A DNA stretch of 64,000 bases from a bacterium (GCA_030648255.1 JAUSHZ010000007.1:24404-88403); one strand, 5' to 3'; counted from the stretch's first letter, positions 1,278 through 27,814 are shown. A program made the numbers and translations. The notes: generated from the sequence alone by a model not told the origin.

Positions 1278-1489
1278 GTTAGAAGCTGTGTGAATTTTTA
1301 AATTTAATGATTTAAAAATTCATTACAGATTCTTACACCCCGTTAAGTGCGAGCGATGAGCGAGCTACTTAACTGGGGTTTGTTTGTATTCTTATCCACC
1401 CCAGTGAAGTAAAATTTGAGTACAAATTCACTTCACGGGGTTAAGCGATTGTATTTGTTCAGCCTCGGCTTCGGCTTCGCAAACAATCG
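1278..1489 (-). repeat. intercistronic structured repeat, copy rpsK|rpsD (leader Y', core A, tail R4)
   Basis: 13-bp hairpin tgaatttttaaat/atttaaaaattca; two CCCC..GGGG hairpins; 9-bp IR agcgattgt/acaatcgct at rpsK TAG. Confidence 0.9.
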
Positions 1490-1945
1490 CTAAACCCTTC
1501 TTGGTTTTCTTGGCCGACAGCCATTATGAGGAATTGGCGTTACGTCTCTTATTGATTCTATCTCCAAGCCTTGAGCGGCAATAGTTTTTAAAGCTGAATC
1601 TCTTCCGCCTCCAACCCCCTTAACAAAAACAGCAACTTCTTTAATTTTAAATTGTTCGCAAGCTAAAGCTACCGCTTGGGCAACTTTAGAGGCGGCAAAA
1701 GAAGTGCCTTTCTTTGTGCCCTTAAACCCAACATTTCCAGCAGACCTCCAAAATAAGACATTTCCTTTTTCATCAGCCAAGCTGACAATAGTATTGTTAT
1801 AGGTTGAAGAAATATAAATTCTGCCCTTTCTAAAAGAAGTTCTGGTAGAAGCAACATTCAAATCTTTTCCTAATTTCTTTTCAACTTTATCTGTTTCTTC
1901 AATAAGCTCTTTTTCTGTTTTTTGTATTACTCTTTTCTTTCCCAT
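1490..1945 (-). CDS. rpsK: 30S ribosomal protein S11
   Basis: MGKKRVIQK... S11 core; start placed at ATG directly after repeat (track's 12-aa prefix is repeat read-through). Confidence 0.92.
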   Translation of the reverse strand: MGKKRVIQKTEKELIEETDKVEKKLGKDLNVASTRTSFRKGRIYISSTYNNTIVSLADEKGNVLFWRSAGNVGFKGTKKGTSFAASKVAQAVALACEQFKIKEVAVFVKGVGGGRDSALKTIAAQGLEIESIRDVTPIPHNGCRPRKPRRV

Positions 1946-2136
1946 GTTAGTATTCGTTAATGAATGAAGTGGCTTTGCCACGAATGAATTTACGAAGACT
2001 TACACCCTGTGGAGTAGAAATTTGCTCTGCAAATTTCTGTTTTAAATTTTTAGTAAAAAATTTAAAACTACTCCACGGGGTAAATTCGTCGTAAGCTCTG
2101 GCTTCGCCTGCTGGCTTTCCCTCGCTAACGGCTCAT
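1946..2136 (-). repeat. repeat copy rpsM|rpsK (leader W, core B, tail R3)
   Basis: gtggc-ttt-gccac; ccctgtggagtag..ctactccacgggg with two inner hairpins. Confidence 0.9.
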
Positions 2137-2526
2137 TTACTTTGGCCCTGGGGCTGTTTTTCTTCCAGAACTTACAGTTCTCTTAACATTGCCCCTTACA
2201 GTTCTTGAATTCTTTTTTGTTTTTTGCCCTCTAACAGTCAAGCCCTTTATGTGCCTGGTTCCTCGCCAACACTTAATCTCTTTTAATCTTTTAATATGGG
2301 CCACGTGCTCTCTTCTTAAGTCTCCTTCAATCTTATAACTTGCATCAATAACCTCTTTTATCTTCATTGCTTCTTGCTCGGTTAAATCTTTAGCTTTTTT
2401 CTGTGGCTCTATGTTGCATTGCTTTAAAATTCTTAAAGCCAATGGCCTGCCAATGCCAAAAACATAAGTCAAAGAAATGGCTATTTGTTTATTATCTGGA
2501 ATTGTGATGCTTGCTATTCGTGGCAT
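2137..2526 (-). CDS. rpsM: 30S ribosomal protein S13
   Basis: MPRIASITIPDNKQ... S13; start at ATG after ...tctaac of repeat. Confidence 0.92.
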   Translation of the reverse strand: MPRIASITIPDNKQIAISLTYVFGIGRPLALRILKQCNIEPQKKAKDLTEQEAMKIKEVIDASYKIEGDLRREHVAHIKRLKEIKCWRGTRHIKGLTVRGQKTKKNSRTVRGNVKRTVSSGRKTAPGPK

Positions 2527-2751
2527 GTTAGAAGCTGTGTGAATTTTCAAATTTAATGATTTGAAAATTCATTACAGATTCTTACACCCCGTTAAGTGCG
2601 AGCGATTAGCAAGCTACTTAACTGGGGTTTGTTTATATTTCTATCCACACCCCAGTGAAGTAGAATTTAATTTCATTAAATTCACTTCACGGGGTAAATT
2701 CCGCCAACCGCTCAAACTTCGGCTCATCGCCTCGTTTTCGCGGGGCGTCAT
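2527..2751 (-). repeat. repeat copy rpmJ|rpsM (Y, A, R2)
   Basis: near-identical to 2869-3085. Confidence 0.9.
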
Positions 2752-2868
2752 TTATGCGCCTTGGCGCTGTTTGTGTTTTGGAGTTTTGCAAATAACATAA
2801 ACCCTCCCCTTTCTTCTGGCGATTTTACAATCCTTACATAATTTTTTTACTGATGGTTTAACCTTCAT
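2752..2868 (-). CDS. rpmJ: 50S ribosomal protein L36
   Basis: rc gives [38 protein letters not shown] (38 aa, CxxC..C..H); absent from ORF track (<60 aa). Confidence 0.9.
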
Positions 2869-3085
2869 GTTAGAAGCTGTGTGAATTTTTAAATTTAATG
2901 ATTTGAAAATTCATTACAGATTCTTACACCCCGTTAAGTGCGAGCGATTAGCAAGCTACTTAACTGGGGTTTGTTTGTATTTCTATCCACACCCCAGTGA
3001 AGTAGAATTTGAGTACAAATTCACTTCACGGGGTAAATTCCGCTTGCCAATCGCGCTTCGCCTGCTGGCTCGCACTCTTGGAGCG
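2869..3085 (-). repeat. repeat copy infA|rpmJ (Y, A, R1)
   Basis: as above; tail ..ggagcgtcattta abuts infA TGA. Confidence 0.9.
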
Positions 3086-3304
3086 TCATTTAAGTCTATA
3101 AACTATTCTGCCTCTTTTATCATCAATAGAGGCCATTTCAACCAACACCTTATCGCCCAACAAAATTTTTATGCGATTAATTCTAAGCTTCCCGGCCAAA
3201 TGCGCCAAAACCTCGTTTCCATTTTCCAATTGAATTTTAAATAAAAGACTAGGCAAAGCCTCTACAACTTGGCCTCTTTCTCTTATTGTATTAATTTGTT
3301 TCAT
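3086..3304 (-). CDS. infA: translation initiation factor IF-1
   Basis: 72 aa S1-like fold, MKQINTIRERGQVVEALP... Confidence 0.9.
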   Translation of the reverse strand: MKQINTIRERGQVVEALPSLLFKIQLENGNEVLAHLAGKLRINRIKILLGDKVLVEMASIDDKRGRIVYRLK

Positions 3305-3358
3305 CTCGTTACGATTGTCTAAAATAGCAAATTATTCAAAAAAGGTCAACCCCTTTGG

Positions 3359-4738
3359 CTAGAAAACCATTTCTATCTTTATCTTATCTAGGCTTTTTGG
3401 CGCTCTTTTTATCCAAAAAGGCCAAAATTGCGTGTCCAGTCGTTCAATTTGGGGGTAGCTATTATTCAATAAAATCTCCATATCTTCTTTAGATTTTCCA
3501 GCTAAATCCGCAATTAAGGCTGTTTGGTCAATATCATTATAAAGCTTGGCATCTGTTTTTAAATTAAAAATCAAACTCCCTTTTTCCGTAATGCTGCCTT
3601 TTGGAACTACGCTTGTCGCTAAGCTTTGTTCGTATAATTTCTTTGAAGAAGATAGTTTTGTATCAATAAAGCTTTTGGCCATATCCTGCAAATCTGATCC
3701 CTTAAAAACAATTGTCTTAGCTTTTATTTTTGCATAACAATTAAATTCAGCGAGGTTGGCGCCAACAGCTTGAGAACAAGAGAACTCGGGCTCGCCATAG
3801 TCAACTGATTCTTGGTTAAAAGAAAATCCAGCGGTTGTTTGCTCCTTCAAGCCCGAAACAGCCATTTTTTTTAACTCCCTAATCAAGCTTTCTTGAGCAT
3901 TATCCATATCTCCTTGAGTTACTTGATCAACTTCTTTCTGACCCCCGCCGTCAATTTTTTCTCTTGATTCACCCCAAACATTATAGTATAAAGCTGTTCC
4001 TGTTAATCCTGGAATAGAAAACTTAGCAGGGGCTATATTATATTCCTCTCCCTCCTGATCAGCGACAACCTGAACCTCTGTAATGCTTGGGGTTAATTTT
4101 CCATTAAACAATGTGGCTTGGGGCAAAGAAATCTTATTTTTTGCCCGATAAACCTTTCCATCTTTTGATGATATAAATCTTGTTCCTGCTTTTAAGTTTA
4201 AGGGCATTGGGGGATTAATATTATTGTAAACAAATATAGCGCCCGTTGCCCCAGATTGTTCTGTTTCTTTTCCAGTTGACTTAAATGTTTCCCATTTCTC
4301 TACTTCTTTTTCAATTACATTTCCGGGAATAATCTTTTTTTCAAAATCGATTTGCGCTTGAGAAAAAGAAACTTGAATCTCGTCTTTAATTGTAATTGGC
4401 TCTAATAGCGGTTTCACGCTTATTTCTGCTTTTGCCTGCATCGTTAAATATAAAAAGGCTCCCCCTAAAAGCAAAATGGCTACACCAATAACTATGGGAA
4501 TTTTTAGAGCAAGTCTTGGTAAAGTAAAAGAAACTCGAATTTCTTTTTTTCCCTTGCCACGTCGGAGTTCCGCAGGAACGGAGGCGGGTCTTTCTTTTTT
4601 CACCTCCCCCTTCTTCATCCCCTTTCTTGTAGGTGATTTTTTTTGAGGCTTAGTTGAAGCTAAAACAATTGGAAATTGTTCCTCTGTTTCTTCTGCTTCT
4701 TCCTCATCTGGATTTGTTATATCAATAATTTGCTTCAT
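3359..4738 (-). CDS. hypothetical membrane-anchored protein (acidic/basic N-term, single TM, large extracytoplasmic domain)
   Basis: 459-aa ORF; one hydrophobic helix IPIVIGVAILLLGGAFLYL; no recognisable family. Confidence 0.55.
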   Translation of the reverse strand: MKQIIDITNPDEEEAEETEEQFPIVLASTKPQKKSPTRKGMKKGEVKKERPASVPAELRRGKGKKEIRVSFTLPRLALKIPIVIGVAILLLGGAFLYLTMQAKAEISVKPLLEPITIKDEIQVSFSQAQIDFEKKIIPGNVIEKEVEKWETFKSTGKETEQSGATGAIFVYNNINPPMPLNLKAGTRFISSKDGKVYRAKNKISLPQATLFNGKLTPSITEVQVVADQEGEEYNIAPAKFSIPGLTGTALYYNVWGESREKIDGGGQKEVDQVTQGDMDNAQESLIRELKKMAVSGLKEQTTAGFSFNQESVDYGEPEFSCSQAVGANLAEFNCYAKIKAKTIVFKGSDLQDMAKSFIDTKLSSSKKLYEQSLATSVVPKGSITEKGSLIFNLKTDAKLYNDIDQTALIADLAGKSKEDMEILLNNSYPQIERLDTQFWPFWIKRAPKSLDKIKIEMVF

Positions 4739-4866
4739 GTTAGAAATTCTTAATTGAGTGGCGAATTTATGAGCCGTGAAATTTAGAAGTTTTTAGTCCT
4801 CCGTAAATTCAAACTTCGCCTACTGACTCGTTTTCATTAACGGATTACTTATTCTACCACAAAAAT
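4739..4866 (-). repeat. degenerate repeat copy alaS|hypothetical (leader X + tail R3; central hairpin missing)
   Basis: gttagaaattcttaattgagtggcgaatttatgagccgtgaaatttagaa..gtcctccgtaa..attaacggattacttat. Confidence 0.8.
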
Positions 4867-6615
4867 TTACTGCTGCAAAATCGCTTTAATTCGCCGAACG
4901 CCAGCTGAACTGGCTTCTTCTTTAATAATTTTAAATACGCCCAAAGTTTTGGTATTTTCAACATGAGGACCAGCGCAAATTTCTTTAGAGAACTCTCCTG
5001 CGGAATAAACTTTCACTTTTTCTGGATACTTGTGGCCAAAAACTCCTGTGGCCCCTTCATCAAATGCTTTTTGAGTTTCCATTTCACGGCAAACAACAGG
5101 CAACTCCTTTTTTATTTGCTCGTTAACTAAGTCCTCCACTTTTTTTATTTCTTCTGGGGTTAATTTTCTTTCAAAAGAAAAATCAAACCTTATTCTTTCA
5201 GAAGTAATATTGCTACCTTTTTGCTGAACATCCCCTCCCAAAACTTGCCTTAAAGCAGCCAGCATTAAATGAGTGGCTGTGTGGTATTTTGTGGTTTGTT
5301 CAGAATCATCAGCTAAGCCGGATTTAAACTGCCCAGCACTGGCTGTTCTAGACAACTCTTGATGCTTTTTTAATTCCTCTTGAAAACCTTTTTCGTCAAT
5401 TTCCTTGTCTTTCTCCTTGGCAATCTCTCTTGTTATTTCTAAAGGAAATCCGTAAGTTTGATAAAGATTAAAAACCTCTTCCCCAGAAATAATTGGCATA
5501 TTTATTTTTTCAAATTCTTTTAATCCCCTGTCTAAACAAGTTAAAAATCTTTCTTCTTCTTTTTGTAGTTCATTTAAAATAAACTCCTGATTTTCTTTCA
5601 GTTCTGGGTAAACATTTTCATACATAGCAATAATAACTTTAGCAATCTCGCCCGTAAAAGCGCTCTCAATACCCAACAGCTTGCCGTATCTTATTGCCCG
5701 CCTTATTAATCTCCGCAACACATATCCTCTTTCTGTGTTTGACGGAACAAGCCCATCGGCTAATATAAAAACGCTGGCTTTTATATGGTCTGCAATAATG
5801 CGAAAAGATTTTGTATTTTCCTCATATTGCTTTCCCGAAATTTCTGAAATTCTATTTATTATCGGAGTAAACAGCTCTGTTTCATAAACATTACTTTTTC
5901 CTTGCAAAACCATTGTAGTTCTCTCCAGGCCCATGCCAGTGTCCACATTTTTCTGCGATAATTCTTCAAACTTTCCGTCTGCAGTTTTGTTATACTGCAT
6001 AAAAACATTGTTCCAAATCTCCACCCATTTTTTATCGCTTGGGTCAAATTTTTCAGGAACTTCCCCCTCTCCAACCCAATAAAACATTTCTGTGTCTGGG
6101 CCGCAGGGCCCTGTACTTCCTGCTGGGCCCCACCAATTATCCTCACGGCCCAAATAAGCAATCCGCTCTGGCTTAACCCCCAAACCTTGCCAAAGATTAA
6201 AGGCCCCCTCGTCTTTTGGTATATTATTTTCTGTTTCACCTTCAAAAACCGTAAAAGCTAACTTTTCCAAAGGAATATTTAATTCTTTAGTTAAAAATTC
6301 AAAGCTCCATTCAATGGCCTCTTTTTTAAAATAATCCCCCAAACTCCAATTACCAAGCATTTCAAAAAATGTTCCATGGGTGTTGTCCCCCACATCATCA
6401 ATATCACCCGTTCTAATACATTTTTGGCTATTGCAAAGCCGTTTACCTAGGGGATGGTTTTCCCCAAGCAAATAAGGCACCAATGGGTGCATACCTGCTG
6501 TGGTAAATAAAACTGTTGGGTCGTTTTCTGGAATTAAAGGGGCAGATGGTATTCTTTTGTGTCCCTTGTTCTCAAAAAACTTTAAATATTTTTCTCGTAT
6601 TTCTTTAGCTGTCAT
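4867..6615 (-). CDS. alaS: alanine--tRNA ligase, short form (catalytic plus editing-like region, no C-terminal domain)
   Basis: MTAKEIREKYLKFFENKGHKRIPSAPLIPENDPTVLFTTAGMHPL...; HTATHLM motif. Confidence 0.85.
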   Translation of the reverse strand: MTAKEIREKYLKFFENKGHKRIPSAPLIPENDPTVLFTTAGMHPLVPYLLGENHPLGKRLCNSQKCIRTGDIDDVGDNTHGTFFEMLGNWSLGDYFKKEAIEWSFEFLTKELNIPLEKLAFTVFEGETENNIPKDEGAFNLWQGLGVKPERIAYLGREDNWWGPAGSTGPCGPDTEMFYWVGEGEVPEKFDPSDKKWVEIWNNVFMQYNKTADGKFEELSQKNVDTGMGLERTTMVLQGKSNVYETELFTPIINRISEISGKQYEENTKSFRIIADHIKASVFILADGLVPSNTERGYVLRRLIRRAIRYGKLLGIESAFTGEIAKVIIAMYENVYPELKENQEFILNELQKEEERFLTCLDRGLKEFEKINMPIISGEEVFNLYQTYGFPLEITREIAKEKDKEIDEKGFQEELKKHQELSRTASAGQFKSGLADDSEQTTKYHTATHLMLAALRQVLGGDVQQKGSNITSERIRFDFSFERKLTPEEIKKVEDLVNEQIKKELPVVCREMETQKAFDEGATGVFGHKYPEKVKVYSAGEFSKEICAGPHVENTKTLGVFKIIKEEASSAGVRRIKAILQQ

Positions 6616-6621
6616 ATATTT

Positions 6622-7377
6622 CTAAATATTTTTTACCATAGCAGTAAATTCTTTTATATTCAATGAAGCGCCACCAACTAAGAGGCCATCAATTGCTTCA
6701 TTTTCTAAATATTTATTTGCGTTGTCTGACCCAACGCTTCCACCGTATAAAACTCTTACTTTCTCTTTGGCTTTTCTGCCGTAAATTTCAGCTATTAATT
6801 TTTTTATATATAAAGCCATTGTTAAGGCGTCGTCGGGAGCACAGGTTAATCCTTGGTTTGTGCTAATTGCCCACAAGGGCTCATAGGCTATAACAAGCTC
6901 TCCTACTTGTTGTTTTTTAATAGCTTTTAAGCTTTCCCTTAGCTTTTTCTCAACAATTTGAAATGTTTTGCTTTGGTTTCTTTCTTCTAATGTCTCGCCA
7001 ATGCAAACAACTGGTGTTAAACCCGTGCTTAACACGGCTTTTACTTTTTTGGCAGTCATCTCATTTGTTTCTCCCATTACCATTACTCTTTCAGAATGAC
7101 CTAAAATAACATACTTAACTCCTAAATTTTTTAGCATTGTTGGCGAAACCTCGCCCGTGAATGCTCCTTGATTTTCCCAAAAACAATCTTGCGATCCAAT
7201 TTTTACTGCCCCAACTCCAAAAACTTTTTTTGCCTCTGCTAAATAAACAAAGGGGGGGCAAACCACAACTTCTATTTTATTGTTTTTTATCCCCGCTCTC
7301 AATCCAACCATCATCTTTTGCGCCTCTTTTAGGGTTGTTGGATTACACTTCCAATTTGCAATAATTAGCTTTTTCAT
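6622..7377 (-). CDS. tpiA: triose-phosphate isomerase
   Basis: IANWKCN, GHSERV, VCIGETLEER motifs. Confidence 0.9.
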   Translation of the reverse strand: MKKLIIANWKCNPTTLKEAQKMMVGLRAGIKNNKIEVVVCPPFVYLAEAKKVFGVGAVKIGSQDCFWENQGAFTGEVSPTMLKNLGVKYVILGHSERVMVMGETNEMTAKKVKAVLSTGLTPVVCIGETLEERNQSKTFQIVEKKLRESLKAIKKQQVGELVIAYEPLWAISTNQGLTCAPDDALTMALYIKKLIAEIYGRKAKEKVRVLYGGSVGSDNANKYLENEAIDGLLVGGASLNIKEFTAMVKNI

Positions 7378-7381
7378 AGAT

Positions 7382-8368: not shown

Positions 8369-8395
8369 ATTTACTTATTATAGCAAAATCTTTAA
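8369..8395 (-). promoter_or_regulatory. sigma70-like promoter giving near-leaderless galT-like/tpiA/alaS mRNA
   Basis: TATAAT (rc of 8377-8382) only 8 nt before ATG; TTGTTT ~15 nt upstream. Confidence 0.4.
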
Positions 8396-8438: not shown

Positions 8439-8573
8439 TCAAAAGTCCTGATTTGCTCTTGATTCCATAATTTCTTTGGATCTATCAATCATGCGAATCC
8501 TCTCCAGATATTTTTTAAGTAAACGCTCACGACATGTCTCTCTTTTTTTTAAAGTTCTTCTTCTTTTGTTCAT
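8439..8573 (-). CDS. small highly basic protein (44 aa) with canonical SD
   Basis: AAGGAGG 7 nt upstream of ATG; MNKRRRTLKKRETCRERLLKKYLERIRMIDRSKEIMESRANQDF. Confidence 0.5.
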   Translation of the reverse strand: MNKRRRTLKKRETCRERLLKKYLERIRMIDRSKEIMESRANQDF

Positions 8574-12221: not shown

Positions 12222-12409
12222 GTTAGTAATTCTTAATTGAACGGCGAATTTATGAGCTGTGAAATTTAGAATTTCTTACACCCCGTGGAGTAGAAATTTG
12301 CTCTGCAAATTTCTATTTTAAATTTTTTACTAAAAATTTAAAATTACTCCACAGGGTAAATTCCGCTTGCCAATCGCGCTTCGATTACTCAGCACTCTTG
12401 GAGCGTCAT
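12222..12409 (-). repeat. repeat copy secY|rplO (X, B, R1)
   Basis: direct sequence match to family. Confidence 0.9.
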
Positions 12410-12841: not shown

Positions 12842-13040
12842 GTTAGTAATTCTTAATTGAACTGCGAACGATTAGTGAGCTGTGAAATTTAGAAGTACTT
12901 ACACCCTGTGGAGTAGAAATTTGCTCTGCAAATTTCTGTTTTAAATTTTTAGTAAAAAATTTAAAACTACTCCACGGGGTAAATTCCGCCTTCCACTCAA
13001 ACTTCGGCTAATCGCCTCGTTTTCGTGGGGCGTCATTTAA
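12842..13040 (-). repeat. repeat copy rplO|rpsE (X, B, R2); tail 13008-13040 is translated as rpsE C-terminus
   Basis: ..cggctaatcgcctcgttttcgtggggcgtcattta in frame with S5. Confidence 0.88.
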
Positions 13041-13526: not shown

Positions 13527-13720
13527 GTTAGTAATTCTTAATTGAACGGCGAACGATTAGTGAGCTGTGAAGTTTAGAAGTACTTACACCCTGTGGAGTA
13601 GAAATTTGCTCTGCAAATTTCTGTTTTAAATTTTTTACTAAAAATTTAAAACTACTCCACGGGGTAAATTCCGCTTGCCAATCGTGCCTCACCTGCTGGC
13701 TCGCACTCTTGGAGCGTCAT
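13527..13720 (-). repeat. repeat copy rpsE|rplR (X, B, R1)
   Basis: sequence match. Confidence 0.9.
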
Positions 13721-14065: not shown

Positions 14066-14258
14066 GTTAGTAGTCGTTAATGAATGAGTGGCGATTAGCC
14101 ACGAGTGAATTTACGAATTCTTACACCCTGTGGAGTAGAAATTTGCTCTGCAAATTTCTGTTTCAAATTTTTAGCAAAAAATTTGAAACTACACCACGGG
14201 GTAAGTCCTCCGTAAGCTCTGGCTTCGGCTAATCGCCTTGCCATCGCTAACGGATTAC
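14066..14258 (-). repeat. repeat copy rplR|rplF (W, B, R3)
   Basis: sequence match; gtggc-gatta-gccac. Confidence 0.9.
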
Positions 14259-14819: not shown

Positions 14820-15021
14820 GTTAGAAATTGTGTGAGTTTTCAAGCTATAATCTTTTTTATGGCTTGAAAACTCATTACAAGTTCTTACACCCTGTGGAGT
14901 AGAAATTTGCTCCGCAAATTTCTGTTTTAAATTTTTTACTAAAAATTTAAAACTACTCCACGGGGTAAGGTATCCGTAAGCTCGGGCTTCGCCTGCTGGC
15001 TCGCCCTCGCTAACGGCTACC
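14820..15021 (-). repeat. repeat copy rplF|rpsH (Z, B, R3)
   Basis: 13-bp hairpin tgagttttcaagc/gcttgaaaactca. Confidence 0.9.
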
Positions 15022-15411: not shown

Positions 15412-15612
15412 ATTAGAAGTTGTGTGAGTTTTCAAGCTATAATTTTTTTTATGGCTTGAAAACTCATTACAAATTCTTATACCCCGTGGAGTAGAAATTT
15501 GCTCTGCAAATTTCTGTTTTAAATTTTTTACTAAAAATTTAAAACTACTCCACAGGGTAAGTCCTCCGTAAGCTCTGGCTCGGCTGTTGCCTCGCCATAG
15601 CTAACGGATTAC
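15412..15612 (-). repeat. repeat copy rpsH|rpsN (Z, B, R3)
   Basis: sequence match. Confidence 0.9.
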
Positions 15613-15798: not shown

Positions 15799-16020
15799 GT
15801 TAGTGATTCTTAATTGAACGGCGAGCGATTAGCGAGCTGTGAAATTTAGAATGACTTACACCCCGTTAAGTGCGAGCGATTAGCGAGCTACTTAACTGGG
15901 GTTTCGTTGTATTCTTACCCCACCCCAGTGAAGTAGAATTTGAGTACAAATTCACTTCACGGGGTAAGGCTCTGCTACCGCTCAACCTTCGCCTTCGGCT
16001 CGGCTTCACGGGCAGAAGCC
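15799..16020 (-). repeat. repeat copy rpsN|rplE (X, A, R2-like); tail 15975-16020 translated as rplE C-terminus
   Basis: taccgctcaaccttcgccttcggctcggcttcacgg ~ R2 consensus. Confidence 0.85.
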
Positions 16021-16577: not shown

Positions 16578-16586
16578 GAAGCTGTC

Positions 16587-16641
16587 GAAGCTGTTGAAAC
16601 CGAGCTTCTGGAAGCCCTTGAAGCTCGGTTTCAACAGCTTC
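16587..16641 (-). repeat. perfect 22-bp inverted repeat (distinct from main family) directly upstream of rplE
   Basis: gaagctgttgaaaccgagcttc-tggaagccctt-gaagctcggtttcaacagcttc. Confidence 0.9.
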
Positions 16642-16655
16642 AGGCTCCATAGCTT

Positions 16656-16961: not shown

Positions 16962-17177
16962 GTTAGAAATTGTGTGAGTTTTCAAGCTATAATCTTTTTT
17001 ATGGCTTGAAAACTCATTACAAGTTCTTACACCCTGTTAAGTGCGAGCGATGAGCGAGCTACTTAACTGGGGTTTGTTTATATTATTCTCATACCCCAGT
17101 GAAGTAGAATTTGATTACAAATTCACTTCACGGGGTTAAGCGATTGTAATGCTCGGCTATCGCCTCGCAGACAATCG
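16962..17177 (-). repeat. repeat copy rplN|rplX (Z, A, R4)
   Basis: sequence match; IR agcgattgt/acaatcgct at rplN TAG. Confidence 0.9.
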
Positions 17178-18375: not shown

Positions 18376-18566
18376 GTTAGAAGCTGTGTGAATTTTCAAA
18401 TTTAATGATTTGAAAATTCATTACAGATTCTTACACCCCGTGGAGTAGAAATTTGCTCTGCAAATTTCTGTTTTAAATTTTTAGTAAAAAATTTAAAACT
18501 ACTCCACAGGGTAAATTCCGCTTGCCAATCACGCTCGCCTGCTGGCTCGCGCTCTTGGAGCGTCAT
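18376..18566 (-). repeat. repeat copy rpsC|rplP (Y, B, R1)
   Basis: sequence match. Confidence 0.9.
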
Positions 18567-19226
18567 TTAATTAAAGCGTTCTCCCTTATACATCCAAACC
18601 TTAACGCCAATAACCCCATAAGTGCAGTGTGCCTCGCATGAGCCATATTCAACTATGGCTCTTATTGTTTGAAGCGGAAGTCGCCCATCTTTTAACCATT
18701 CTCTTCTGGAAATTTCAACTCCATTTAACCTACCTGATACCTCAACCTTCACGCCTTTTATTTCTTTTTGCTCAGCTGTTTTGCTTATTGCCATTTTCAA
18801 AACTCTTCTAAACGGCACTTGCTTTTCGATTTGGCCAGCCATCCATTGAGCTGTTAAGCTGGCTGAAAGCCATGGGTTTCTTATTTCAATAATTTCTATT
18901 TTAATGCTGTTTTTATCTGTTTTTATCTTCCCCTTTACTTTTGATATTGCTTTTTCAATTCCCATTTTCAAATCCTCAACTCCTTTGCCCCCCCTGCCGA
19001 TAATCAAAGCGGGTCTGGAAGTTTTAATAATAATTTTTAAGGCAGCGGATGTTCTCTCTATCTCTACTTCCTGAATAATACCCGCGGGTAGCTTCTTAGT
19101 GATAAACTGCCTAATTATAAAATCCTCCTCTAAGTAAACAGGAAAATTGTTCTTATAAAAGCCTCTTGAAAGCCAGTCTTTCATTTCTCTTATCTTAAAA
19201 GATTTTGGGTTGACTTTATGGCTCAT
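18567..19226 (-). CDS. rpsC: 30S ribosomal protein S3
   Basis: KH domain, 219 aa. Confidence 0.93.
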   Translation of the reverse strand: MSHKVNPKSFKIREMKDWLSRGFYKNNFPVYLEEDFIIRQFITKKLPAGIIQEVEIERTSAALKIIIKTSRPALIIGRGGKGVEDLKMGIEKAISKVKGKIKTDKNSIKIEIIEIRNPWLSASLTAQWMAGQIEKQVPFRRVLKMAISKTAEQKEIKGVKVEVSGRLNGVEISRREWLKDGRLPLQTIRAIVEYGSCEAHCTYGVIGVKVWMYKGERFN

Positions 19227-19576: not shown

Positions 19577-19776
19577 GTTAGAAATTGTGTGAGTTTTCAA
19601 GCTATATTTCCTTATGGCTTGAAAACTCATTACAAGTTCTTACACCCCGTGGAGTAGAAATTTGCTCCGCAAATTTCTGTTTTAAATTTTTAGTAAAAAA
19701 TTTAAAACTACTCCACAGGGTAAATTCCGCTTGCCAATCGCGCTTCGCCTGCTGGCTCGCGCTCTTGGAGCGTCAT
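19577..19776 (-). repeat. repeat copy rpsS|rplV (Z, B, R1)
   Basis: sequence match. Confidence 0.9.
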
Positions 19777-20902: not shown

Positions 20903-20904
20903 AA

Positions 20905-21348
20905 TTATCGCGGAATTATTTCAATCTCTTGCCCCTTCTTAATAGTAACAATTGCTTTTTTATATCCTTTTTTCCAGCCGGTTGTTCTGCCCAATCTTTT
21001 TTTCTTCCTGTCAACATTAATTATTCTTACTTTTTCAACGACAACACCATAAACCTCTTGGACTGCTTTTTTTACTTCTGGCTTGGTGGCTGTTTTAAAA
21101 GCTTGAAAAATATATTGGTTTTTTTCCATTAAAAAAGTGGCTTTTTCAGTAATTTGAGGCCTGCTTAAAACGCTTGGAGCTAATTTTATATCCACTTTTT
21201 TTGCTTTGCCCGCCGTAGTTTTAATAGGGGCGGACTTTTCCTCTACAACTTTCCTTTCCTTCTTGTCCGCCGAAGCTTTAGCGGAGGTGGACTTTTTCTT
21301 ATCTTTAAAGCTTTCCTCTTTTTTTGTTTTTTTAAAAAATAATGACAT
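20905..21348 (-). CDS. rplW: 50S ribosomal protein L23 with Lys-rich N-terminal extension
   Basis: 147 aa. Confidence 0.85.
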   Translation of the reverse strand: MSLFFKKTKKEESFKDKKKSTSAKASADKKERKVVEEKSAPIKTTAGKAKKVDIKLAPSVLSRPQITEKATFLMEKNQYIFQAFKTATKPEVKKAVQEVYGVVVEKVRIINVDRKKKRLGRTTGWKKGYKKAIVTIKKGQEIEIIPR

Positions 21349-21349
21349 A

Positions 21350-21988
21350 CTACTTCTTTTCTTTTATAAATAAATCCTGCATAACCTTTATACTTTCCTT
21401 GGGCATAATTAAATATTTGTTGTTCAAAACATCTAAAGCATTCAGGTCTTTTACTTGCATAATTTTTGTTTTGTCTATATTTCTAGAAGCCAAAATAAAG
21501 TCATTGTCCATTTCAGGTAAAGCAATTAAAGTTGTCTTGCCAAGAGTTGGCATTTTTTCTAAAATACCAGCTGCTAATTTTGTTTTAGCAGTTTTTATTT
21601 TTAAATCCTCTATTAAAATTACAAAATTATTCTTAGCTTTTTCAGTCAAAGCCATAAATAGAGCTGCTCTTTTTATTTTCTTTGGCACAATTTTTTTATA
21701 AACTTTTTCGTTTGTGGGGCCAAAAGTAACACCTCCGCCCTTCCAAATAGGAGACCTGGTGGAGCCAGCTCTGGCTCTGCCTGTTCCTTTTTGACGCCAT
21801 GGTTTTTTGCCTCCCCCAGAAACATCGCCTCTGTCTTTTGTGTGGGCGTTGCCTTGCCTTCTGTTTGCCATCTGGGAAACAGCCACTTGATGCAACAAAT
21901 CCTTAGATAATTTCACATCAAAAATCTCCTTCGGCAATTCCGCCTGGCCTGTTTTCTCACCCATTTGATTGTATATATCGATTTTCAT
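21350..21988 (-). CDS. rplD: 50S ribosomal protein L4
   Basis: 212 aa. Confidence 0.92.
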   Translation of the reverse strand: MKIDIYNQMGEKTGQAELPKEIFDVKLSKDLLHQVAVSQMANRRQGNAHTKDRGDVSGGGKKPWRQKGTGRARAGSTRSPIWKGGGVTFGPTNEKVYKKIVPKKIKRAALFMALTEKAKNNFVILIEDLKIKTAKTKLAAGILEKMPTLGKTTLIALPEMDNDFILASRNIDKTKIMQVKDLNALDVLNNKYLIMPKESIKVMQDLFIKEKK

Positions 21989-22014
21989 GTTGGCTATTTT
22001 CTATCCACTGCTTA

Positions 22015-22641
22015 CTATTTACTCTTTTTCTTATTTACTATTGAACTTGTAATCTCTACAAGCGTTCCTCGCCTGCCAGGGATGGCGCCTTTTACTGCAA
22101 TCAAATTATTTTCCAAATCAATTTTAACAATTTTTAAATTTCTCACCGAAATTCGCACAAATCCCATATGGCCTGGCATTCTCTTGCCCGGGAAAACTCT
22201 ACCCGGGTCAGTAGCACCAACCGAACCAATTGTTCTTACTTCATGCTTTGTGCCATGGGTTGTGTGATGCCCCCTAAAATTATATCTCTTAACACCTCCT
22301 TGAAACCCTTTGCCCTTGCTAATACCTGAAATTTTAACTTTATCTCCTTCTTGAAAAACAGAGGCATTAATCTCCTGCCCTAATTCATAATTCTTAATTC
22401 CTGATTCCTGAGGCCTGAACTCTTTTAAATATCTATACTCTTTGCCTTTCTCGGTTTTCTTAATTTTTCTAGCTTTTTTTTCAAAACCAATCTGAACCGA
22501 TTCATAGCCATCTTTGCTTTCCTTGGTCTTATTTTGTAAAACAACACAAGGCCCAGCTGTAATCAAAGTTACTGGGACTGCATCTCCCTTTTCATTAAAT
22601 ATTTGAGTCATCTCTAATTTTTTTCCAAGAATAAATGACAT
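22015..22641 (-). CDS. rplC: 50S ribosomal protein L3
   Basis: 208 aa. Confidence 0.92.
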   Translation of the reverse strand: MSFILGKKLEMTQIFNEKGDAVPVTLITAGPCVVLQNKTKESKDGYESVQIGFEKKARKIKKTEKGKEYRYLKEFRPQESGIKNYELGQEINASVFQEGDKVKISGISKGKGFQGGVKRYNFRGHHTTHGTKHEVRTIGSVGATDPGRVFPGKRMPGHMGFVRISVRNLKIVKIDLENNLIAVKGAIPGRRGTLVEITSSIVNKKKSK

Positions 22642-22941
22642 GTTAGAAGCTGTGTGAATTTTTAAATTTAATGATTTAAAAATTCATTACAGATTCTTAC
22701 ACCCTGTGAAGTAAAATTTGAGTACAAATTTTAATTTTAAATTTTTTACTAAAAATTTAAAATTACTTCACGGGGTTAATAATCCGTAAGCTCAAGCTTC
22801 GCCTGCTGGCTCGCTCTCGCTAACGAATTATTAAAAACACGAGGCATTAACTCCCCGCATTTTTGTTAAAAACTCAAGGGTTAAATTCTTCCCACTTTCA
22901 AGGGTTAAACTAATTAAGTTTTACCTTGAACTCTATATTAA
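22642..22941 (-). repeat. repeat copy rpsJ|rplC (Y', A/B hybrid core, R3) plus ~110-nt unique tail with tttaacccttga direct repeat
   Basis: ccctgtgaagtaaaatttgagtacaaatt..ttactaaaaatttaaaattacttcacgggg. Confidence 0.88.
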
Positions 22942-23280
22942 TTAAATCGTTTTAATTTCAATTTCCACGCCCGCTGGCAAGGTTAAATCACGAAGCGACT
23001 CAATAAATCTTTGGTTTGGATTTGTTACTTCTATCAATCGCTTGTGCACTCTCATTTCAAATTGCTCTCTAGCATCTTTGTGAACAAATGTTGACCTGTT
23101 TACTGTGTATTTTTTTATTTCTGTTGGCAAAGGCACAGGCCCAACCATTTCCACGCCCGACCTGCCCGAAATTTCTGTAATCTGATGGCACGAAGCGTCA
23201 ACCACCTTGCTATCATATGATTTTAGCTTAATTCTTAGCTGAACCGCCTGCTCCACTGGTTTTTCTTTTACTGTTGCCAT
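22942..23280 (-). CDS. rpsJ: 30S ribosomal protein S10
   Basis: start overlaps tuf stop (TAATG). Confidence 0.9.
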   Translation of the reverse strand: MATVKEKPVEQAVQLRIKLKSYDSKVVDASCHQITEISGRSGVEMVGPVPLPTEIKKYTVNRSTFVHKDAREQFEMRVHKRLIEVTNPNQRFIESLRDLTLPAGVEIEIKTI

Positions 23281-24479
23281 TATTTTATTATCTTTGAAAC
23301 CACCCCAGCGCCAACTGTTCGCCCGCCCTCTCTAATAGCAAATTTCTGTTTCTCTTCTAAGGCAATTGGGGTAATCAATTTAACTGTCACACTGATCGTA
23401 TCTCCCGGCATAACCATTTCAACTCCCGCTGGCAAAATAACATCTCCTGTTACATCGCAAGTTCTAATAAAGAACTGTGGCTTGTATCCAGAGAAAAACG
23501 GAGTGTGCCTTCCGCCTTCATCTTTAGTTAAGGCGTAAATTTCTGCTTCAAATTCAGAATGAGGAGTCACAGAGCCTGGCTTAGCAAGCACTTGCCCCCT
23601 TTCAATATCTTCCTTTTTAAACCCTCTCAACAAAATACCCACGTTATCGCCAGCTCTGCCTTCATCAAGAATTTTGTTAAACATTTCCACGCTTGTGGCA
23701 ATAGTTTTTTGAGTGGCTCTTAAGCCAACAATTTCCACCTCCTCTCCGCCCTTCACAATACCTCTTTCTACTCTGCCAGTAGCCACTGTGCCTCTGCCTT
23801 CAATAGAAAAAACATCTTCCACAGCCATTAAAAATGGCTTGTCAGTAGCTCTTACGGGTTCGGGAAAGAAAGAATCAATCTTTTCAAATAATTCAGCAAT
23901 TGGCTTCATATCCTCATCATCCGCTGATTCGGCCGCCACTGCTTTTAATGCTGAGCCTCTAATAATTGGGGTTGTGTCTCCCGGGAAATCGTATTTCTTT
24001 AACAACTCTCGCAATTCTGATTCCACTAATTCAATCATTTCTGGGTCATCCACCTGATCGCATTTATTTAAAAAGATAAGCAAATTTGGCAAACCCACTT
24101 GATTGGCAAGCAAAACGTGCTCTCTGGTTTGAGGCATAGGGCCTTCGGCCGCAGACACAACCAAAATACCTCCGTCCATTTGAGCGGCGCCAGTAATCAT
24201 ATTTTTGATATAATCAGCGTGGCCCGGGCAGTCAATCAAAGCGTAGTGCCTGTTAGCTGTTTCAAATTCGTTGTGTGAAATGTTAATCGTTACGCCTCTG
24301 GCTTTTTCTTCTGGAGCTGAATCAATTTCATCAATTGATTTATTTGAAGATTTAAAACCTTTTAAGTGGGCGTACTTCAACATAGCTGCTGTTAAAGTAG
24401 TTTTGCCGTGGTCAACATGGCCAATAGTGCCAATATTTAAGTGCGGCTTAGTTCTTTCGAATTTTTGTTTCTCTGCCAT
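23280..24479 (-). CDS. tuf: elongation factor Tu
   Basis: [19 protein letters not shown]. Confidence 0.97.
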
Positions 24480-24535
24480 AGATTTAAATTATTTTATTAT
24501 GTTTATTATATTGATTAAAAAAATAAAGTCAATGC

Positions 24536-24805
24536 TTAAAACGGTAAATCATCTAAAGTTAGATCAGCTGTGGGCTTTTCTGACGCTGAAATTTTTTCTA
24601 ATTGCGATTCTGGTTTTGCTTCTAACTCTATTTCTTCAACTGTAATGGGCGTTTTTGATTCTAATAAAGCCGAAGTTAAATCTAAATTTTTTCTTTTTGT
24701 TTTTTCGTACTCGTTAAAAGACATAACCACCATAATATCGTCATTGTCAATTATGAGAACCTTTCCCTCTTCAGAAACAATTTGTTTTATTTTAAATAAA
24801 TCCAT
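24536..24805 (-). CDS. Phd/YefM-like antitoxin-fold domain protein with acidic tail (orphan)
   Basis: KVLIIDNDDIMVVMSFNEYEK resembles YefM core; no adjacent toxin. Confidence 0.45.
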   Translation of the reverse strand: MDLFKIKQIVSEEGKVLIIDNDDIMVVMSFNEYEKTKRKNLDLTSALLESKTPITVEEIELEAKPESQLEKISASEKPTADLTLDDLPF

Positions 24806-24810
24806 AATCT

Positions 24811-24889
24811 TAGAAACCAGAATTCCGAAACCAGAATTCCGAACTTTAATAACTAGAAATTTTTCGGATTTCGGATTTCGTGCTTCGGA
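24811..24889 (-). promoter_or_regulatory. inverted arrays of TTCCGAA (x2) and TTCGGA (x3) flanking an AT-rich core upstream of YefM-like ORF
   Basis: aaaccagaattccg x2 at 24814-24841; ttcgga at 24863, 24870, 24884. Confidence 0.5.
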
Positions 24890-24898
24890 TTTTTATTG

Positions 24899-27001
24899 TT
24901 ATATTCTTTTTCCTTCCACTATTTCTTGCGCTATGTTACTTGGCACTCTTTCATAATGATCAAATTCCATTGTAAAAGCTCCTCTGCCTTGAGTCAATGA
25001 CCTAAGCGAAGTGGCATAGCCAAACATTTCTGACAAAGGCACCTTGCCTTTAATTATTTTTTGGCCAACTCTGTCATCTGTTTCTTCAATCAATCCCCTT
25101 CTTCTATTTAAATCGCCAATTACATCGCCAAAAAATTCTTCTGGGCAAGCTGCTTCAAGTTTCATGATTGGTTCCAAGACAATTGGAGTAGCTTTTTTAC
25201 AAGCTGCCTGAAACGCCATAGACGAGGCAATTTTAAAAGCGATTTCTGACGAATCAACGTCATGATAAGAGCCATCATACAAAGTTATTTCAATATCCAC
25301 CACTGGATACCCCGCCACAACGCCCTTGTTAGTAGCTTCTTTAACTCCTTTCTGAACGCCTGGAATAAACTCTTGAGGAATAGCCCCTCCTTTAATAGCA
25401 TTGATAAATTCATAGCCAAGCCCTCTTTCTTTTGGCTTAACTCTCAAATACACATGGCCATATTGACCTCGCCCGCCTGACTGCTTAATATATTTTCCTT
25501 CAGCTTCGGCCTGGGCCATAATTGTTTCTTTGTAGGCCACTTGGGGCTTGCCAGTATTGGCCTCAACGCCAAATTCTCTTTTCATTCTTTCAACTAAAAT
25601 ATCTAAATGCAATTCTCCCATACCCGACATAATTGTCTCCCCAGTTTCCAAATCCTCTTTAATCCTAAAAGTTGGGTCTTCATCAGATAACTTCTTTAAG
25701 GCAATAATAAGCTTTTCTTGGTCTGCCTTTGTTTTTGGCTCAATTCTAATAGAAATAACTGGCTCTGGGAATACTGGCTTTTCTAAAATAATTTGATTAG
25801 CTTCATCACATAAAGTGTGACCTGTGCCAGTTCTTCGCAAGCCCACGGTGGCTGCAATATCTCCGGCCATAATCTCATCAATATCTTTTCTGGAATTTGC
25901 ATGCATTTGCAAAATTCGGCCAATTCTTTCTTTTTCACCAGTAATTGGATTTAATAAATAAGAACCTTTTGTTAAAGTTCCAGAATAAACCCTAAAATAA
26001 GCCAAACTGCCCACAAATGGGTCGGTGGCAATTTTAAAAACTAAAGCTGAAAATGGCTCTGTGTCATCTGCTTTTCTGGTAATTTCTTTTTCAGTTTTTG
26101 GGTCAAGGCCCTTAACTGGTGGCAAGTCGGCTGGGCTTGGCAAATAATAGCAAACAGCGTCAAGCATTAGTTGAACGCCTTTATTTTTTAAAGCTGAACC
26201 CGCCATCACTGGAATAAGCTTATAAGCTAAAACTGATTTTCGTAAAGATGCCCTCACTTCGTCCACTGAAATTTCTTTACCTTCCACAAACCTGTCTAAT
26301 AAATCTTCGTCTTCTGAAGCAATTTTTTCCATCATATTATGCCTCCATTCTTTGGCTTTTTCTTTTAGGTTTTCCGGGATTTCATTTTCAATAACTTTTT
26401 CTCCTTTTTCTCCCTCAAATGTATAATATTTTTGCGTAATTAAGTCCACAATGCCTTTAAATCTTTCCTCGTGGTCATCGGGAAATTGAATAGCCACAGA
26501 CGACTTGGTAAGTTTTTGTTCAATAGAAGCCAAGCATTTATCAAAACTTGCTCCCATTCTGTCCAGTTTATTAACAAAACAAATTCGGGGCACTTTATAA
26601 TTGTCGGCCTGTCTCCAAACAGTTTCAGATTGAGCTTCCACTCCAGCTACTCCATCAAACACAACCACAGCCCCATCTAAAACCCGCAAAGATCTTTGCA
26701 CCTCGGCTGTAAAATCAATGTGGCCGGGAGTATCAATTAAATTAAATCTAAATAAATTGTCTTTTTCTTTTTCCATTCCAGTGGGCGTCCAATAACAAGT
26801 GGTAGCAGCTGATGTAATAGTAATGCCCCTTTCTCTTTCTTGTTCCATCCAATCCATTACTGCCTCGCCTTCGTGCACTTCGCCAATTTTATGGGAAATG
26901 CCGGTATAAAACAAAACCCGCTCCGAAACGGTTGTTTTTCCTGCGTCAATATGAGCAATAATGCCAATATCCCTTGTTTTTTCTATAGAAAATTCTCGCA
27001 T
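24899..27001 (-). CDS. fusA: elongation factor G
   Basis: AHIDAGKTT, 700 aa. Confidence 0.97.
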   Translation of the reverse strand: MREFSIEKTRDIGIIAHIDAGKTTVSERVLFYTGISHKIGEVHEGEAVMDWMEQERERGITITSAATTCYWTPTGMEKEKDNLFRFNLIDTPGHIDFTAEVQRSLRVLDGAVVVFDGVAGVEAQSETVWRQADNYKVPRICFVNKLDRMGASFDKCLASIEQKLTKSSVAIQFPDDHEERFKGIVDLITQKYYTFEGEKGEKVIENEIPENLKEKAKEWRHNMMEKIASEDEDLLDRFVEGKEISVDEVRASLRKSVLAYKLIPVMAGSALKNKGVQLMLDAVCYYLPSPADLPPVKGLDPKTEKEITRKADDTEPFSALVFKIATDPFVGSLAYFRVYSGTLTKGSYLLNPITGEKERIGRILQMHANSRKDIDEIMAGDIAATVGLRRTGTGHTLCDEANQIILEKPVFPEPVISIRIEPKTKADQEKLIIALKKLSDEDPTFRIKEDLETGETIMSGMGELHLDILVERMKREFGVEANTGKPQVAYKETIMAQAEAEGKYIKQSGGRGQYGHVYLRVKPKERGLGYEFINAIKGGAIPQEFIPGVQKGVKEATNKGVVAGYPVVDIEITLYDGSYHDVDSSEIAFKIASSMAFQAACKKATPIVLEPIMKLEAACPEEFFGDVIGDLNRRRGLIEETDDRVGQKIIKGKVPLSEMFGYATSLRSLTQGRGAFTMEFDHYERVPSNIAQEIVEGKRI

Positions 27002-27088
27002 AAGTTAATCGGTTTAGTCATTCTGAGCCAACGGGCGAAGAATCTCGGCCGAGACCCTTCGCTAATCACTTAGGGTGACAACAATATT

Positions 27089-27550
27089 TTATCGGGCTAG
27101 ATAAGCAAAAGCTTTGTTGGCTTCGGCCATTTTATGGACATTGATTTTCTTTTTCACTGCCTCGCCCTCCCCCTTGCTTGCCTGCATAATTTCTTCAGCT
27201 AATCTGCTGGCCATATCTTTGCCTTTTTTCTTTTGGGCAGATGAAATAAGCCATCTCATGGCCAAGCTCAAAGCCCGTTTGTCTTTAACCTCTCTGGGCA
27301 CCTGATAAGTAGCTCCCCCAACACGCTGTGGCCTCACTTCAACTTTTGGAGCAGCTTCTTCTAAAGCTTTTTCAAAAATATCCATTGGCTCTTGTTTGGT
27401 TTGCTCTTTGACAATATCAAAAGCGCTATAAACAATTTTTTGGGCAATGCTTTTTTTGCCTTGAGTCATTACAGTGTTTATAAATTTTGCAACAATAACG
27501 CTGTCATAAGATGAATCAGGCAATATTTCTCTTGTTTTAAATTTAGCCAT
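27089..27550 (-). CDS. rpsG: 30S ribosomal protein S7
   Basis: 153 aa. Confidence 0.93.
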   Translation of the reverse strand: MAKFKTREILPDSSYDSVIVAKFINTVMTQGKKSIAQKIVYSAFDIVKEQTKQEPMDIFEKALEEAAPKVEVRPQRVGGATYQVPREVKDKRALSLAMRWLISSAQKKKGKDMASRLAEEIMQASKGEGEAVKKKINVHKMAEANKAFAYLAR

Positions 27551-27814
27551 GTTAGTAATCGTTAATGAATGAGTGGCGATTAGCCACGAGTGAATTTACG
27601 AGGACTTACACCCTGTGAAGTAAGATTTGAGGTCTCTTCCAAAAAGTGTATTCTCTTAAACTTTTAACTATTTTTCTCTCGCATCAATTGTTAATAATCG
27701 TACCCTCAAATCTTAATTTTAAATTTTTTACTAAAAATTTAAAATTACTTCACGGGGTAAATTCCGCCAACCGCTCAAACTTCGGCTCATCGCCTCGTTT
27801 TTGCTGGGCGTCAT
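27551..27814 (-). repeat. repeat copy rpsL|rpsG (W, B-type hairpin carrying ~80-nt insertion, R2)
   Basis: ccctgtgaagtaagatttgagg..[insert]..cctcaaatc..attacttcacgggg. Confidence 0.88.

Follow-up and report, generated by a model that had tools for sequence, protein, structure and literature searches.

The closest described counterparts of the element analysed here are the REP (repetitive extragenic palindromic) sequences, with the bacterial interspersed mosaic elements (BIMEs) and REP doublets forming hairpins (REPINs) that they compose, the miniature inverted-repeat transposable elements (MITEs), the BOX elements of pneumococci and the mycobacterial interspersed repetitive units (MIRUs). BOX elements are modular, with interchangeable hairpin-forming boxes (boxA–boxB–boxC), and MIRUs lie between operon genes in one orientation, touching the flanking stop and start codons. 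Both traits recur in a family of 160–300-nucleotide (nt) repeats between the ribosomal protein genes of a 64,000-nt stretch of bacterial DNA (GCA_030648255.1, JAUSHZ010000007.1:24404–88403; the window, meaning that whole stretch). MIRUs, however, are tandem units of 46–101 bp with small coupling open reading frames (ORFs), whereas no conserved ORF spans the element; the element has no known sequence relation to BOX or MIRU. A literature search found no description of such elements, or of small mobile palindromes, in the candidate phyla radiation (CPR) or Patescibacteria. We consider the family to be, more probably than not, a non-autonomous mobile palindromic element of the MITE, REPIN and BIME kind that is tolerated by its host operon.

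A repeat family in the ribosomal protein cluster

The window carries the str–S10–spc–alpha ribosomal protein cluster on its minus strand, from 28231 down to 642, in the order rpsL, rpsG, fusA, tuf, rpsJ ... rplO, secY, adk, map ... infA, rpmJ, rpsM, rpsK, rpsD; it has no L30 gene. Because its SecY is 88–92% identical to proteins of metagenome-assembled genomes (MAGs) of 'Candidatus Pacebacteria' or Patescibacteria, we assign the host, on protein likeness, to the Paceibacteria within the CPR.

We count 17 copies of the element in the window, 16 with a core and one coreless; they span 1278 to 27814, and the minus strand carries them all (Table 1). A repeat search returned overlapping families of 80–196 nt spanning 1274–27823; a 17-nt pattern at the junction of core and leader (CTTACACCCYGTKRAGT) matches 16 times against 0.43 expected, on a single strand, from 1332 to 27621; and a covariance model built from 32 diverse leaders matches exactly 17 times, on the minus strand only, from 1275 to 27610, with zero copies in the 28–64 kb part. 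A first-pass annotation of this DNA had proposed an intergenic family of about 17 copies, one of them outside the ribosomal protein genes (the coreless alaS>hyp459 copy), and both statements stand. The family is confirmed as real, modular, hairpin-rich and non-coding, and takes up about 3.4 kb of the 27-kb ribosomal gene cluster. Rfam holds no match: at gathering thresholds over the whole window only a tRNA and the DUF3800-V motif (48983–49080) pass, and an E-value cut-off applied to 12–20 kb adds only sub-threshold noise resembling microRNA hairpins. A CRISPR array was rejected, as it had been by the annotation, the copies being separated by ribosomal protein genes at spacings of 342–14103 nt.

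Two of the annotation's descriptions hold only in part. It saw a copy in nearly every gap, and the 17 copies are there, but in three further gaps the hairpin fillers are of other, unrelated kinds: a perfect palindrome of 22 bp at rplX>rplE (16580–16655), ATCCGAA-rich inverted repeats at fusA>hyp89 (24806–24898) and a GTCACCCTAAG..CTCAGAATGAC hairpin at rpsG>fusA (27002–27088), a type also present in L082, L104 and L208 (L numbers denote fetched loci). It gave the identity of copies as 85–98%; over the whole element most window copies are 84–90% identical to their best paralogue and odd ones as little as 45–67%, and values of 93–97% are restricted to the most similar pairs, over 152–172 aligned nt. 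The best paralogue of several copies is the neighbouring copy, and identity falls weakly with distance in the window (rho −0.21, p 0.013).

The 300-nt rpsJ>rplC gap is longer than its element, and the remaining ~106 nt upstream (22836–22941) form other hairpins, kept in both the window and L081:198–330, one of which is terminator-like, a stem followed by a T-run (GCGGGGAGTTAATGCCTCGTGTTTTT). They might serve as an attenuator or close a transcription unit.

Anatomy and folding

On the mRNA strand each copy runs from the upstream stop codon through a GC-rich tail, core A or B and one of four leader types to the ATG. The stop codon forms the first three bases of the tail hairpin, whose feet are TAAAT..ATTTA, TAAGT..ACTTA or TAAGGTA..TACCTTA. 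Two forms of core exist, a three-way junction (CCCCGTGGAGTAG, two inner hairpins, CTACTCCACGGGG) and a pair of hairpins; TGTAAG then opens the leader hairpin, the 3′ arm of which ends ..TTCTAAC or ..TACTAAC and abuts the ATG. The canonical layout comprises TAA, a tail hairpin of ~58–60 nt, a core hairpin (usually the three-way junction), a leader hairpin and TAAC, and module swaps, remnants and nested insertions all occur among the copies. A reading of every gap thus agrees with the modules first proposed, including the stop codon within the tail, to which we add two details: rpsE has lost its own stop, its final nine codons and TAG being element sequence from the tail, and the infA stop is the TGA within the element's TAAATGA. 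The 18-residue N termini that the ORF track appeared to share are, as supposed, artefacts, namely TTG-start ORF extensions into the leader. The idea of a conserved small ORF that stops at the TAA preceding the ATG was rejected, since it holds with leader X only and not with Y, Z or W.

Table 1 Copies of the element in the window and RAYT-like genes in fetched loci
Feature	Position	Strand	Description
rpsL>rpsG	27551..27814	−	tail (TAAATGACGCC..), core B with 71-nt insertion in second inner hairpin, leader W
rpsJ>rplC	22642..22835	−	tail, core B variant, leader X
rpsS>rplV	19578..19776	−	tail of ATGACGCTCC type, core B (three-way junction), leader Y
rpsC>rplP	18376..18566	−	tail, core B, leader X; fold −87 kcal/mol, z = −12
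rplN>rplX	16962..17177	−	TAG-type tail (TTAGCGATTGT..ACAATCGCTTAA), core A (two hairpins), leader Y
rplE>rpsN	15799..15974	−	tail absent, core A, leader Z
rpsN>rpsH	15412..15612	−	tail of TAAGTAATCC type, core B, leader Y, compensated foot TATAAG..CTAAT
rpsH>rplF	14820..15021	−	tail TAAGGTAGCC..TACCTTA, core B, leader Y; 90% identity to neighbour copy
rplF>rplR	14066..14258	−	canonical form; TAA flanks on both sides
rplR>rpsE	13527..13720	−	tail, core B, leader Z; fold z = −5.9
rpsE>rplO	12842..13038	−	tail begins within rpsE ORF
rplO>secY	12222..12409	−	tail, core B, leader Z
alaS>hyp459	4739..4866	−	coreless; tail fused straight to leader Z
infA>rpmJ	2869..3085	−	tail, core A, leader X
rpmJ>rpsM	2527..2751	−	tail, core A, leader X; 97% identity over 152 nt to infA>rpmJ copy
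rpsM>rpsK	1946..2136	−	tail TAAATGAGCCGTTAGC, core B, leader W
rpsK>rpsD	1278..1489	−	TAG-type tail, core A, leader X; fold z = −8.5
RAYT-like Y1 genes	L112:8942-9658; L137:6171-6512; L212/L214/L216:10001-107xx		protein length 232 to 262 aa

Predicted folds (ViennaRNA) consist of three abutting hairpin domains with energies of −68 to −87 kcal/mol and z of −5.9 to −12; in them the A of the AUG takes part in the last base pair of the leader and the pairs of the tail foot include the stop codon. Stems change in a compensated manner. Across 32 aligned leaders two pairs alternate (UA/CG 18:14 and GC/CG 19:13), and the G–C foot pair (TGTAAG..CTAAC) becomes A–U (TATAAG..CTAAT) in one; in a wider set three more TATAAG leaders end ..CTAAT, that of rpsN>rpsH among them. 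Inner tail stems alternate between AU, GC and UA, and the inner hairpins of the core are swapped wholesale for unrelated AT-rich or GC-rich sequences with pairing preserved. Over 185 modules folding is equally good on the antisense and sense strands (−26.2 versus −25.3 kcal/mol), and there is no clear sense-strand excess of wobble pairs (57 internal G–U pairs versus 40 A–C mismatches). We therefore see no sign of selection that sees only RNA, and the equal folding of both strands fits a palindrome at the DNA level.

In a canonical copy, the 30 nt that follow the 5′ TAA resemble the 30 nt that precede the 3′ TAA once these are reverse-complemented. At rplF>rplR the 5′ end (GTAATCCGTTAGCGA..) and the reverse complement of the 3′ end (..CATTAACGACTAC) agree at 22 of 30 positions, including the loop GGCGATTAG. 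Leader W is an inverted homologue of the tail, the two flanking the core, so that in canonical copies they constitute hairpin-forming terminal inverted repeats flanked by TAA..TAA. Units arranged as inverted pairs that form a larger hairpin, as in REPINs, are thus found here by way of leader W and the tail; copies with leader X, leader Y or the ATGACGC tail lack this symmetry. Nearly all copies have TAA ahead of the 5′ inverted repeat and TAA(C/T) behind the 3′ one; if these flanks are taken as a target-site duplication, the residual spacers differ from those of empty sites, and the filled and empty sites compared include no pair similar enough to define the limits of the element.

No sense-strand terminators occur in the copies, where terminator-like matches fall only on the antisense (plus) strand. 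Read on that strand between 12286 and 19684, core B forms a hairpin with a T-run, to which most of 27 terminator-like matches (7.3 expected) are due. It could block antisense transcription, and the resemblance, confined to AT-rich variants, may help to purge inverted insertions. Sigma-70 promoters within the element do not exceed shuffle level.

Filled and empty junctions in sister genomes

Sister operons were fetched through SecY homologues and compared at ten junctions, from S17>L14 to L15>SecY. The window has eight copies at these junctions, L081 (GCA_028710765.1, SecY 90%) two, L082/L208 (91%) three shorter ones with a single-hairpin core and leader W, L211 (GCA_028715435.1, 89%) none, and L205–207 (92%) none at the three junctions that they cover. 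Insertion polymorphism among close relatives, by which MITEs are recognized, is therefore found here, with 0, 2, 3 and 8 copies at 89–92% SecY identity. Empty junctions are tight (for example, TAAATATATG, TGGTAAATATATG and TAAATATG), and L081 carries a copy at rplV>rpsC (L22>S3), where the window genes overlap. Two short gaps, AGATTTCTAACGT at S3>L16 of L208 and ATTAAGAATTTTTAAT at S8>L6 of L211, look like the 3′ ends of lost copies.

The L081 copies at orthologous junctions are 50–76% identical to those of the window and of other module types, compared with 84–90% for paralogues within the window. Paralogues closer than orthologues, together with the empty sister junctions, indicate that the elements are dispensable, recently gained or lost, and homogenized or copied within the genome. 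The empty sites that the first-pass annotation had suggested looking for in sister genomes exist at orthologous junctions in L211 and L205–207 and partly in L081 and L082/L208; with tight empty junctions in operons of ~90% SecY identity, the processing or stoichiometry system that it proposed is not supported as an essential one. In the more distant L083 (SecY 76%) the same gaps are filled by unrelated AT-rich palindromes, and a search of genome contigs with L6 found only ~50%-identical operons, in which the element is absent.

Another MITE-like family is present in L081 at 14114–14244 and 18609–18860, its terminal inverted repeats (CCCCGCACCAAACAAGCTT..AAGCTTGTTTGGTGCGGGG) being 19 nt long. 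Its copies abut GTG starts (galT>tpi and infA>rpmJ), and the second has a nested insertion.

Distribution across metagenomes

Public metagenome contigs scanned with a 22-nt core–leader junction pattern yielded at least 120 stretches bearing it, from groundwater, lake sediment and similar samples. Nearly all of the matches listed are true three-part copies that end in ..TTCTAAC, 0–10 nt and ATG; L102, L136 and L153 are chance matches, as is the one match among IMG/VR viral contigs, within a coding region. In 428 kb of metagenome loci there are 96 matches to the leader model, and copies are present independently in JGI, ENA and NCBI assemblies.

At least 13 of 57 downstream proteins are ribosomal (S16, S8, L27, S7, L18, L22, L20, L17 and L11). 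The others include ClpP, GroES, Hsp20, NusA, NusB, RpoA, LexA, response regulators and MurG, as well as a proton pyrophosphatase, a transglycosylase and pilus ATPases. Such neighbours show that the family is not specific to the ribosomal operon, though it favours highly expressed genes; the restriction to ribosomal protein genes assumed at first falls with the copies preceding murG, clpP, groES, hsp20, nusA/B, lexA and pilus genes. Ribosomal-cluster copies versus copies elsewhere number 17 versus 0 in the window and 5 versus 0 in the sister MAG (L081 versus L214 and L216).

Some metagenome copies contain nested palindromes within hairpin loops. One element (L104:4290–4730; also in L085, L111 and L144) has an 89-aa GIY-YIG nuclease gene inside its core loop; the ORF runs through the 3′ arm of the core and stops in the leader's TCGTAAAT, and the element sits between a TATAAT box and a LexA-methyltransferase gene. 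At L092:13340–14120 and L107:10080–10860 a 350-nt unit of rpsN and one element is triplicated in tandem, through either recombination between flanking copies or an assembly artefact. In L147, S14 is joined straight to L22 across an element, probably in a chimera.

Start sites with and without the element

The first-pass annotation had tied the lack of a Shine–Dalgarno (SD) sequence to element-led genes, and SD-independent start presentation to the element. Of 63 window genes scanned for SD-like motifs at −18 to −4, one has such a motif, regardless of a preceding element; a small ORF at 8573 is the second case led by SD, and there is a third site near 30440. Rarity with or without the element makes the lack of SD a property of the genome and not of the element, contrary to that claim. 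Element-free genes are A/T-rich upstream, often with only 6–20 nt from a −10-like box to the ATG (as at 8369–8392, 31143–31175 and 48957–48985), which implies very short or absent 5′ leaders.

A real ORF follows 78 of 87 distinct copies from the metagenomes and the window. In most operon-internal copies the tail opens exactly with the stop codon, and in 27 copies the tail's stop closes an upstream ORF of at least 40 codons. Just upstream of the alaS>hyp459 copy lies an extended −10-like box, TGGTAGAAT, the last T of which is the T of the tail TAA (TGGTAGAATAAGTAATCC).

A candidate mobilizer

Searches by tblastn with approximate IS200 TnpA and Escherichia coli RAYT (REP-associated tyrosine transposase) sequences gave no lead for TnpA and a weak RAYT match on L112. 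The L112 gene has a Pfam Y1_Tnp match (E = 2e-8) and a homologue on L137, both contigs being element-bearing. This RAYT-like Y1 family, with 3,426 relatives, is widely found in Paceibacteria, and two members, P0195 and P0125, are encoded (on L214 and L216) in GCA_028710765.1, the MAG of the sister operon L081.

Each of these genes is flanked by its own perfect REP hairpin, and four of five (L112, L137, L212 and L216) have an extra copy of the hairpin inside the gene; the L214 gene has an internal match identical to the upstream one. The internal hairpin occupies one fixed place, where it encodes a variable peptide (for example, GGSSPV, TEGRPRG or ACTGKTGE) and to which the variation in length maps. 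Most flanking hairpins have TTAC..GTAA feet, and the element core reads TTAC|CCCGTG..CACGGG|GTGTAA. The L137 REP type (GAGGGCAGACCTC) is the palindrome nested in element loops in L101, L123 and L157. A small REP-like hairpin in the window, TTACACTGGTAAGACCTGTGTAA (31803–31825), downstream of tRNA-Pro and a terminator, is of the same type as the hairpins flanking the L212 gene and one after secY in L211.

On the strength of these analogies a RAYT-like Y1 (HUH) transposase may be the mobilizer. If an enzyme of this class worked on hairpins of single-stranded DNA, the single orientation of the copies would be explained. The GIY-YIG gene was not adopted for this role because it is a single case, L104 and three identical contigs.

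Origin of the family

A mobile element of the kind set out above would have spread as follows. A canonical element would be copied into TAA-containing sites just upstream of start codons, at stop–start junctions within operons or at the base after a −10 box, probably by an enzyme supplied in trans, for which the RAYT-like transposase is the best candidate. After insertion, modules would be exchanged, deleted or invaded by other small palindromes. Tolerance by the operon would follow from co-transcription, from a supplied upstream stop (TAAATGA holds stops in two frames), from the lack of a sense-strand terminator and from three hairpins whose abutting feet keep the stop or transcript start near the next AUG. 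Host benefit, such as hairpin protection of the 3′ and 5′ ends of flanking cistrons or a processing site, would come second; roles in RNA processing or mRNA stabilization are possible on these secondary terms. Among the three roles offered by the first-pass annotation, a MITE-like selfish element at TAA/ATG junctions best fits the comparative data.

Several observations weigh against this reading. A cut-and-paste MITE would insert both ways, whereas the copies are always in sense orientation and adjacent to a start codon (17 of 17 in the window and 5 of 5 in L081). Between ..CTAAC and the ATG most copies have a spacer of 0 nt, which no empty junction that was read shows, and in at least 13 independent promoter contexts a −10-like hexamer (often TGnTAnnnT) shares its final T with the start of the tail. 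Terminal inverted repeats exceed the 95th percentile of shuffles in only ~28% of copies. Copies concentrate in highly expressed genes, as those of a useful RNA module also would. The REPs flanking the RAYT-like genes (GCGGGGGATGGACCCCCG, CGGAGACCCGGTCTCCG) match no element module; they are low-copy in the fetched loci and share with the core only the TTAC..GTAA foot and the style of G/C runs, so the link to this enzyme is one of resemblance, a lead and not a result. Among 30 proteins scanned from 28–59 kb of the window there is no transposase, the 64 kb contain no RAYT gene, and one scan of the fetched loci, with patterns that were too narrow, revealed no autonomous copy with element ends. The regularities of orientation, stop, spacer and −10 box are unpredicted by simple insertion and speak for strong selection on RNA-level geometry or for a very specific target. 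They suggest selection for a stop or transcript start flush with the first hairpin and an AUG flush with the last.

A rival account makes the element a host-selected RNA cassette that the mRNA needs and mobility only distributes; we find this unlikely on balance yet give it appreciable weight, and it does not exclude a mobile element. Its roles could be cutting by RNase III or RNase Y, protection of cistron ends, or placement of the AUG at a hairpin foot near the stop for reinitiation. The locked orientation, the real ORF behind most copies, the paired stop codon and AUG, the compensatory stem changes, the enrichment before ribosomal, chaperone, protease and transcription genes, and the −10 boxes from which a transcript would start inside a 5′-terminal hairpin all speak for it, and a related genome has RNase Y and PNPase genes. 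It is hard to reconcile with relatives of ~90% SecY identity that have no copies or other copies at the same junctions, with module types that differ at orthologous sites, or with the lack of sense-strand bias in wobble pairs and folding energy; moreover, where a genome makes no use of SD, initiation should suffer from a hairpin that sequesters −1 to −25.

A more speculative extension, which we regard as doubtful, is that the element acts as a mobile coupling bridge. Its hairpins would extrude ~200 nt and juxtapose the stop or 5′ end with the next AUG or, alternatively, cleavage at the feet would release leaderless monocistronic mRNAs capped by protective hairpins. If this were true, the ribosomes of a CPR bacterium with few SD sites and short leaders could use the bridge to reinitiate beyond the insert, and a device for translational coupling or mRNA processing would be carried by the transposable element itself, which the most highly expressed genes would preferentially recruit.

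We think improbable an origin without transposition, in which template switching (snap-back) makes hairpins in place as a heavily transcribed operon is replicated, and gene conversion spreads and homogenizes them among neighbouring junctions. It would account for near neighbours as best paralogues, the weak fall of identity with distance, the wholesale replacement of inner core hairpins by unrelated but pairing sequences, and the AT-rich palindromes filling the same gaps in L083; but the same composite and junctions (GGGTGTAAG and TTCTAAC) recur at hundreds of unlinked loci, before unrelated genes and in many samples, and the junctions have no flanking homology to support conversion. That the family is an assembly or chimera artefact, or a translated feature made of small ORFs or N-terminal extensions, is scarcely credible, since although repeats break or scramble some contigs (the L147 join and the L092/L107 triplication) and ORF callers extend genes into the leader, the gene order of the window is canonical, three assembly sources hold the family independently, and internal reading frames are not conserved between leader types.

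Implications

CPR genomes are usually seen as streamlined, yet here one repeat family fills about 3.4 kb of the ribosomal cluster. A mobile element of this kind would be a parasite living in the most constrained operon of the cell, where it brings a stop, avoids sense-strand terminators and folds away. Filled and empty junctions in near-identical operons offer a natural experiment on the translation of internal cistrons where SD sequences are scarce. The repeats also break or scramble metagenome assemblies of a cluster that supplies markers for CPR phylogeny, and cause false N- and C-terminal gene extensions.

Other features of the window

The DUF3800-V RNA motif (41.9 bits, plus strand) adjoins a DUF3800 gene at 49116–49784 on the minus strand. 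Four tandem 51-nt repeats (28739–28939; 71–100% identity) lie in a gene for a 316-aa hypothetical protein (28367–29317), which has no Pfam match.

Relation to known families

Compared with described systems, the element is nearest to the REP, BIME and REPIN–RAYT sequences of E. coli and Pseudomonas. Like them it consists of short imperfect palindromes in mosaics, with inverted homologous units round a centre; it lies between operon genes, is co-transcribed and forms hairpins that could protect mRNA ends; and RAYT-like genes occur in the same lineage, with REP feet (TTAC..GTAA) that resemble the core feet. It differs in its unit of 160–300 nt, its three specialized modules, its strictly single orientation and its stop-to-start fit, and the RAYT genes are flanked by REPs other than element modules, which leaves a cognate RAYT a candidate only. 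The first-pass annotation had set the element aside as not REP/BIME-sized, which is right for the whole element, whereas its single modules and mosaic build are REP-, BIME- and REPIN-like.

With MITEs (Correia/NEMIS of Neisseria, ERIC, RUP and Nezha) it shares small size, a non-coding, multi-copy, hairpin-forming and co-transcribed nature, insertion polymorphism and, in canonical copies, terminal inverted repeats with a short A/T flank (TAA..TAA). Unlike them it has inverted repeats in about a quarter of copies and no known autonomous insertion sequence partner, and whereas MITEs insert both ways, it is locked in orientation, with ends that coincide with stop and start codons. The RNase III sites between cistrons of phage T7 resemble it as stable hairpins within a polycistronic mRNA, and ribosome shunting over the hairpin of the cauliflower mosaic virus 35S leader resembles it in having an upstream ORF that stops at the foot and a next start just beyond; both analogies are geometric only, and sister genomes dispense with the element. 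The element would be new for CPR bacteria and not a new class; its orientation lock and codon-to-codon fit are unusual.

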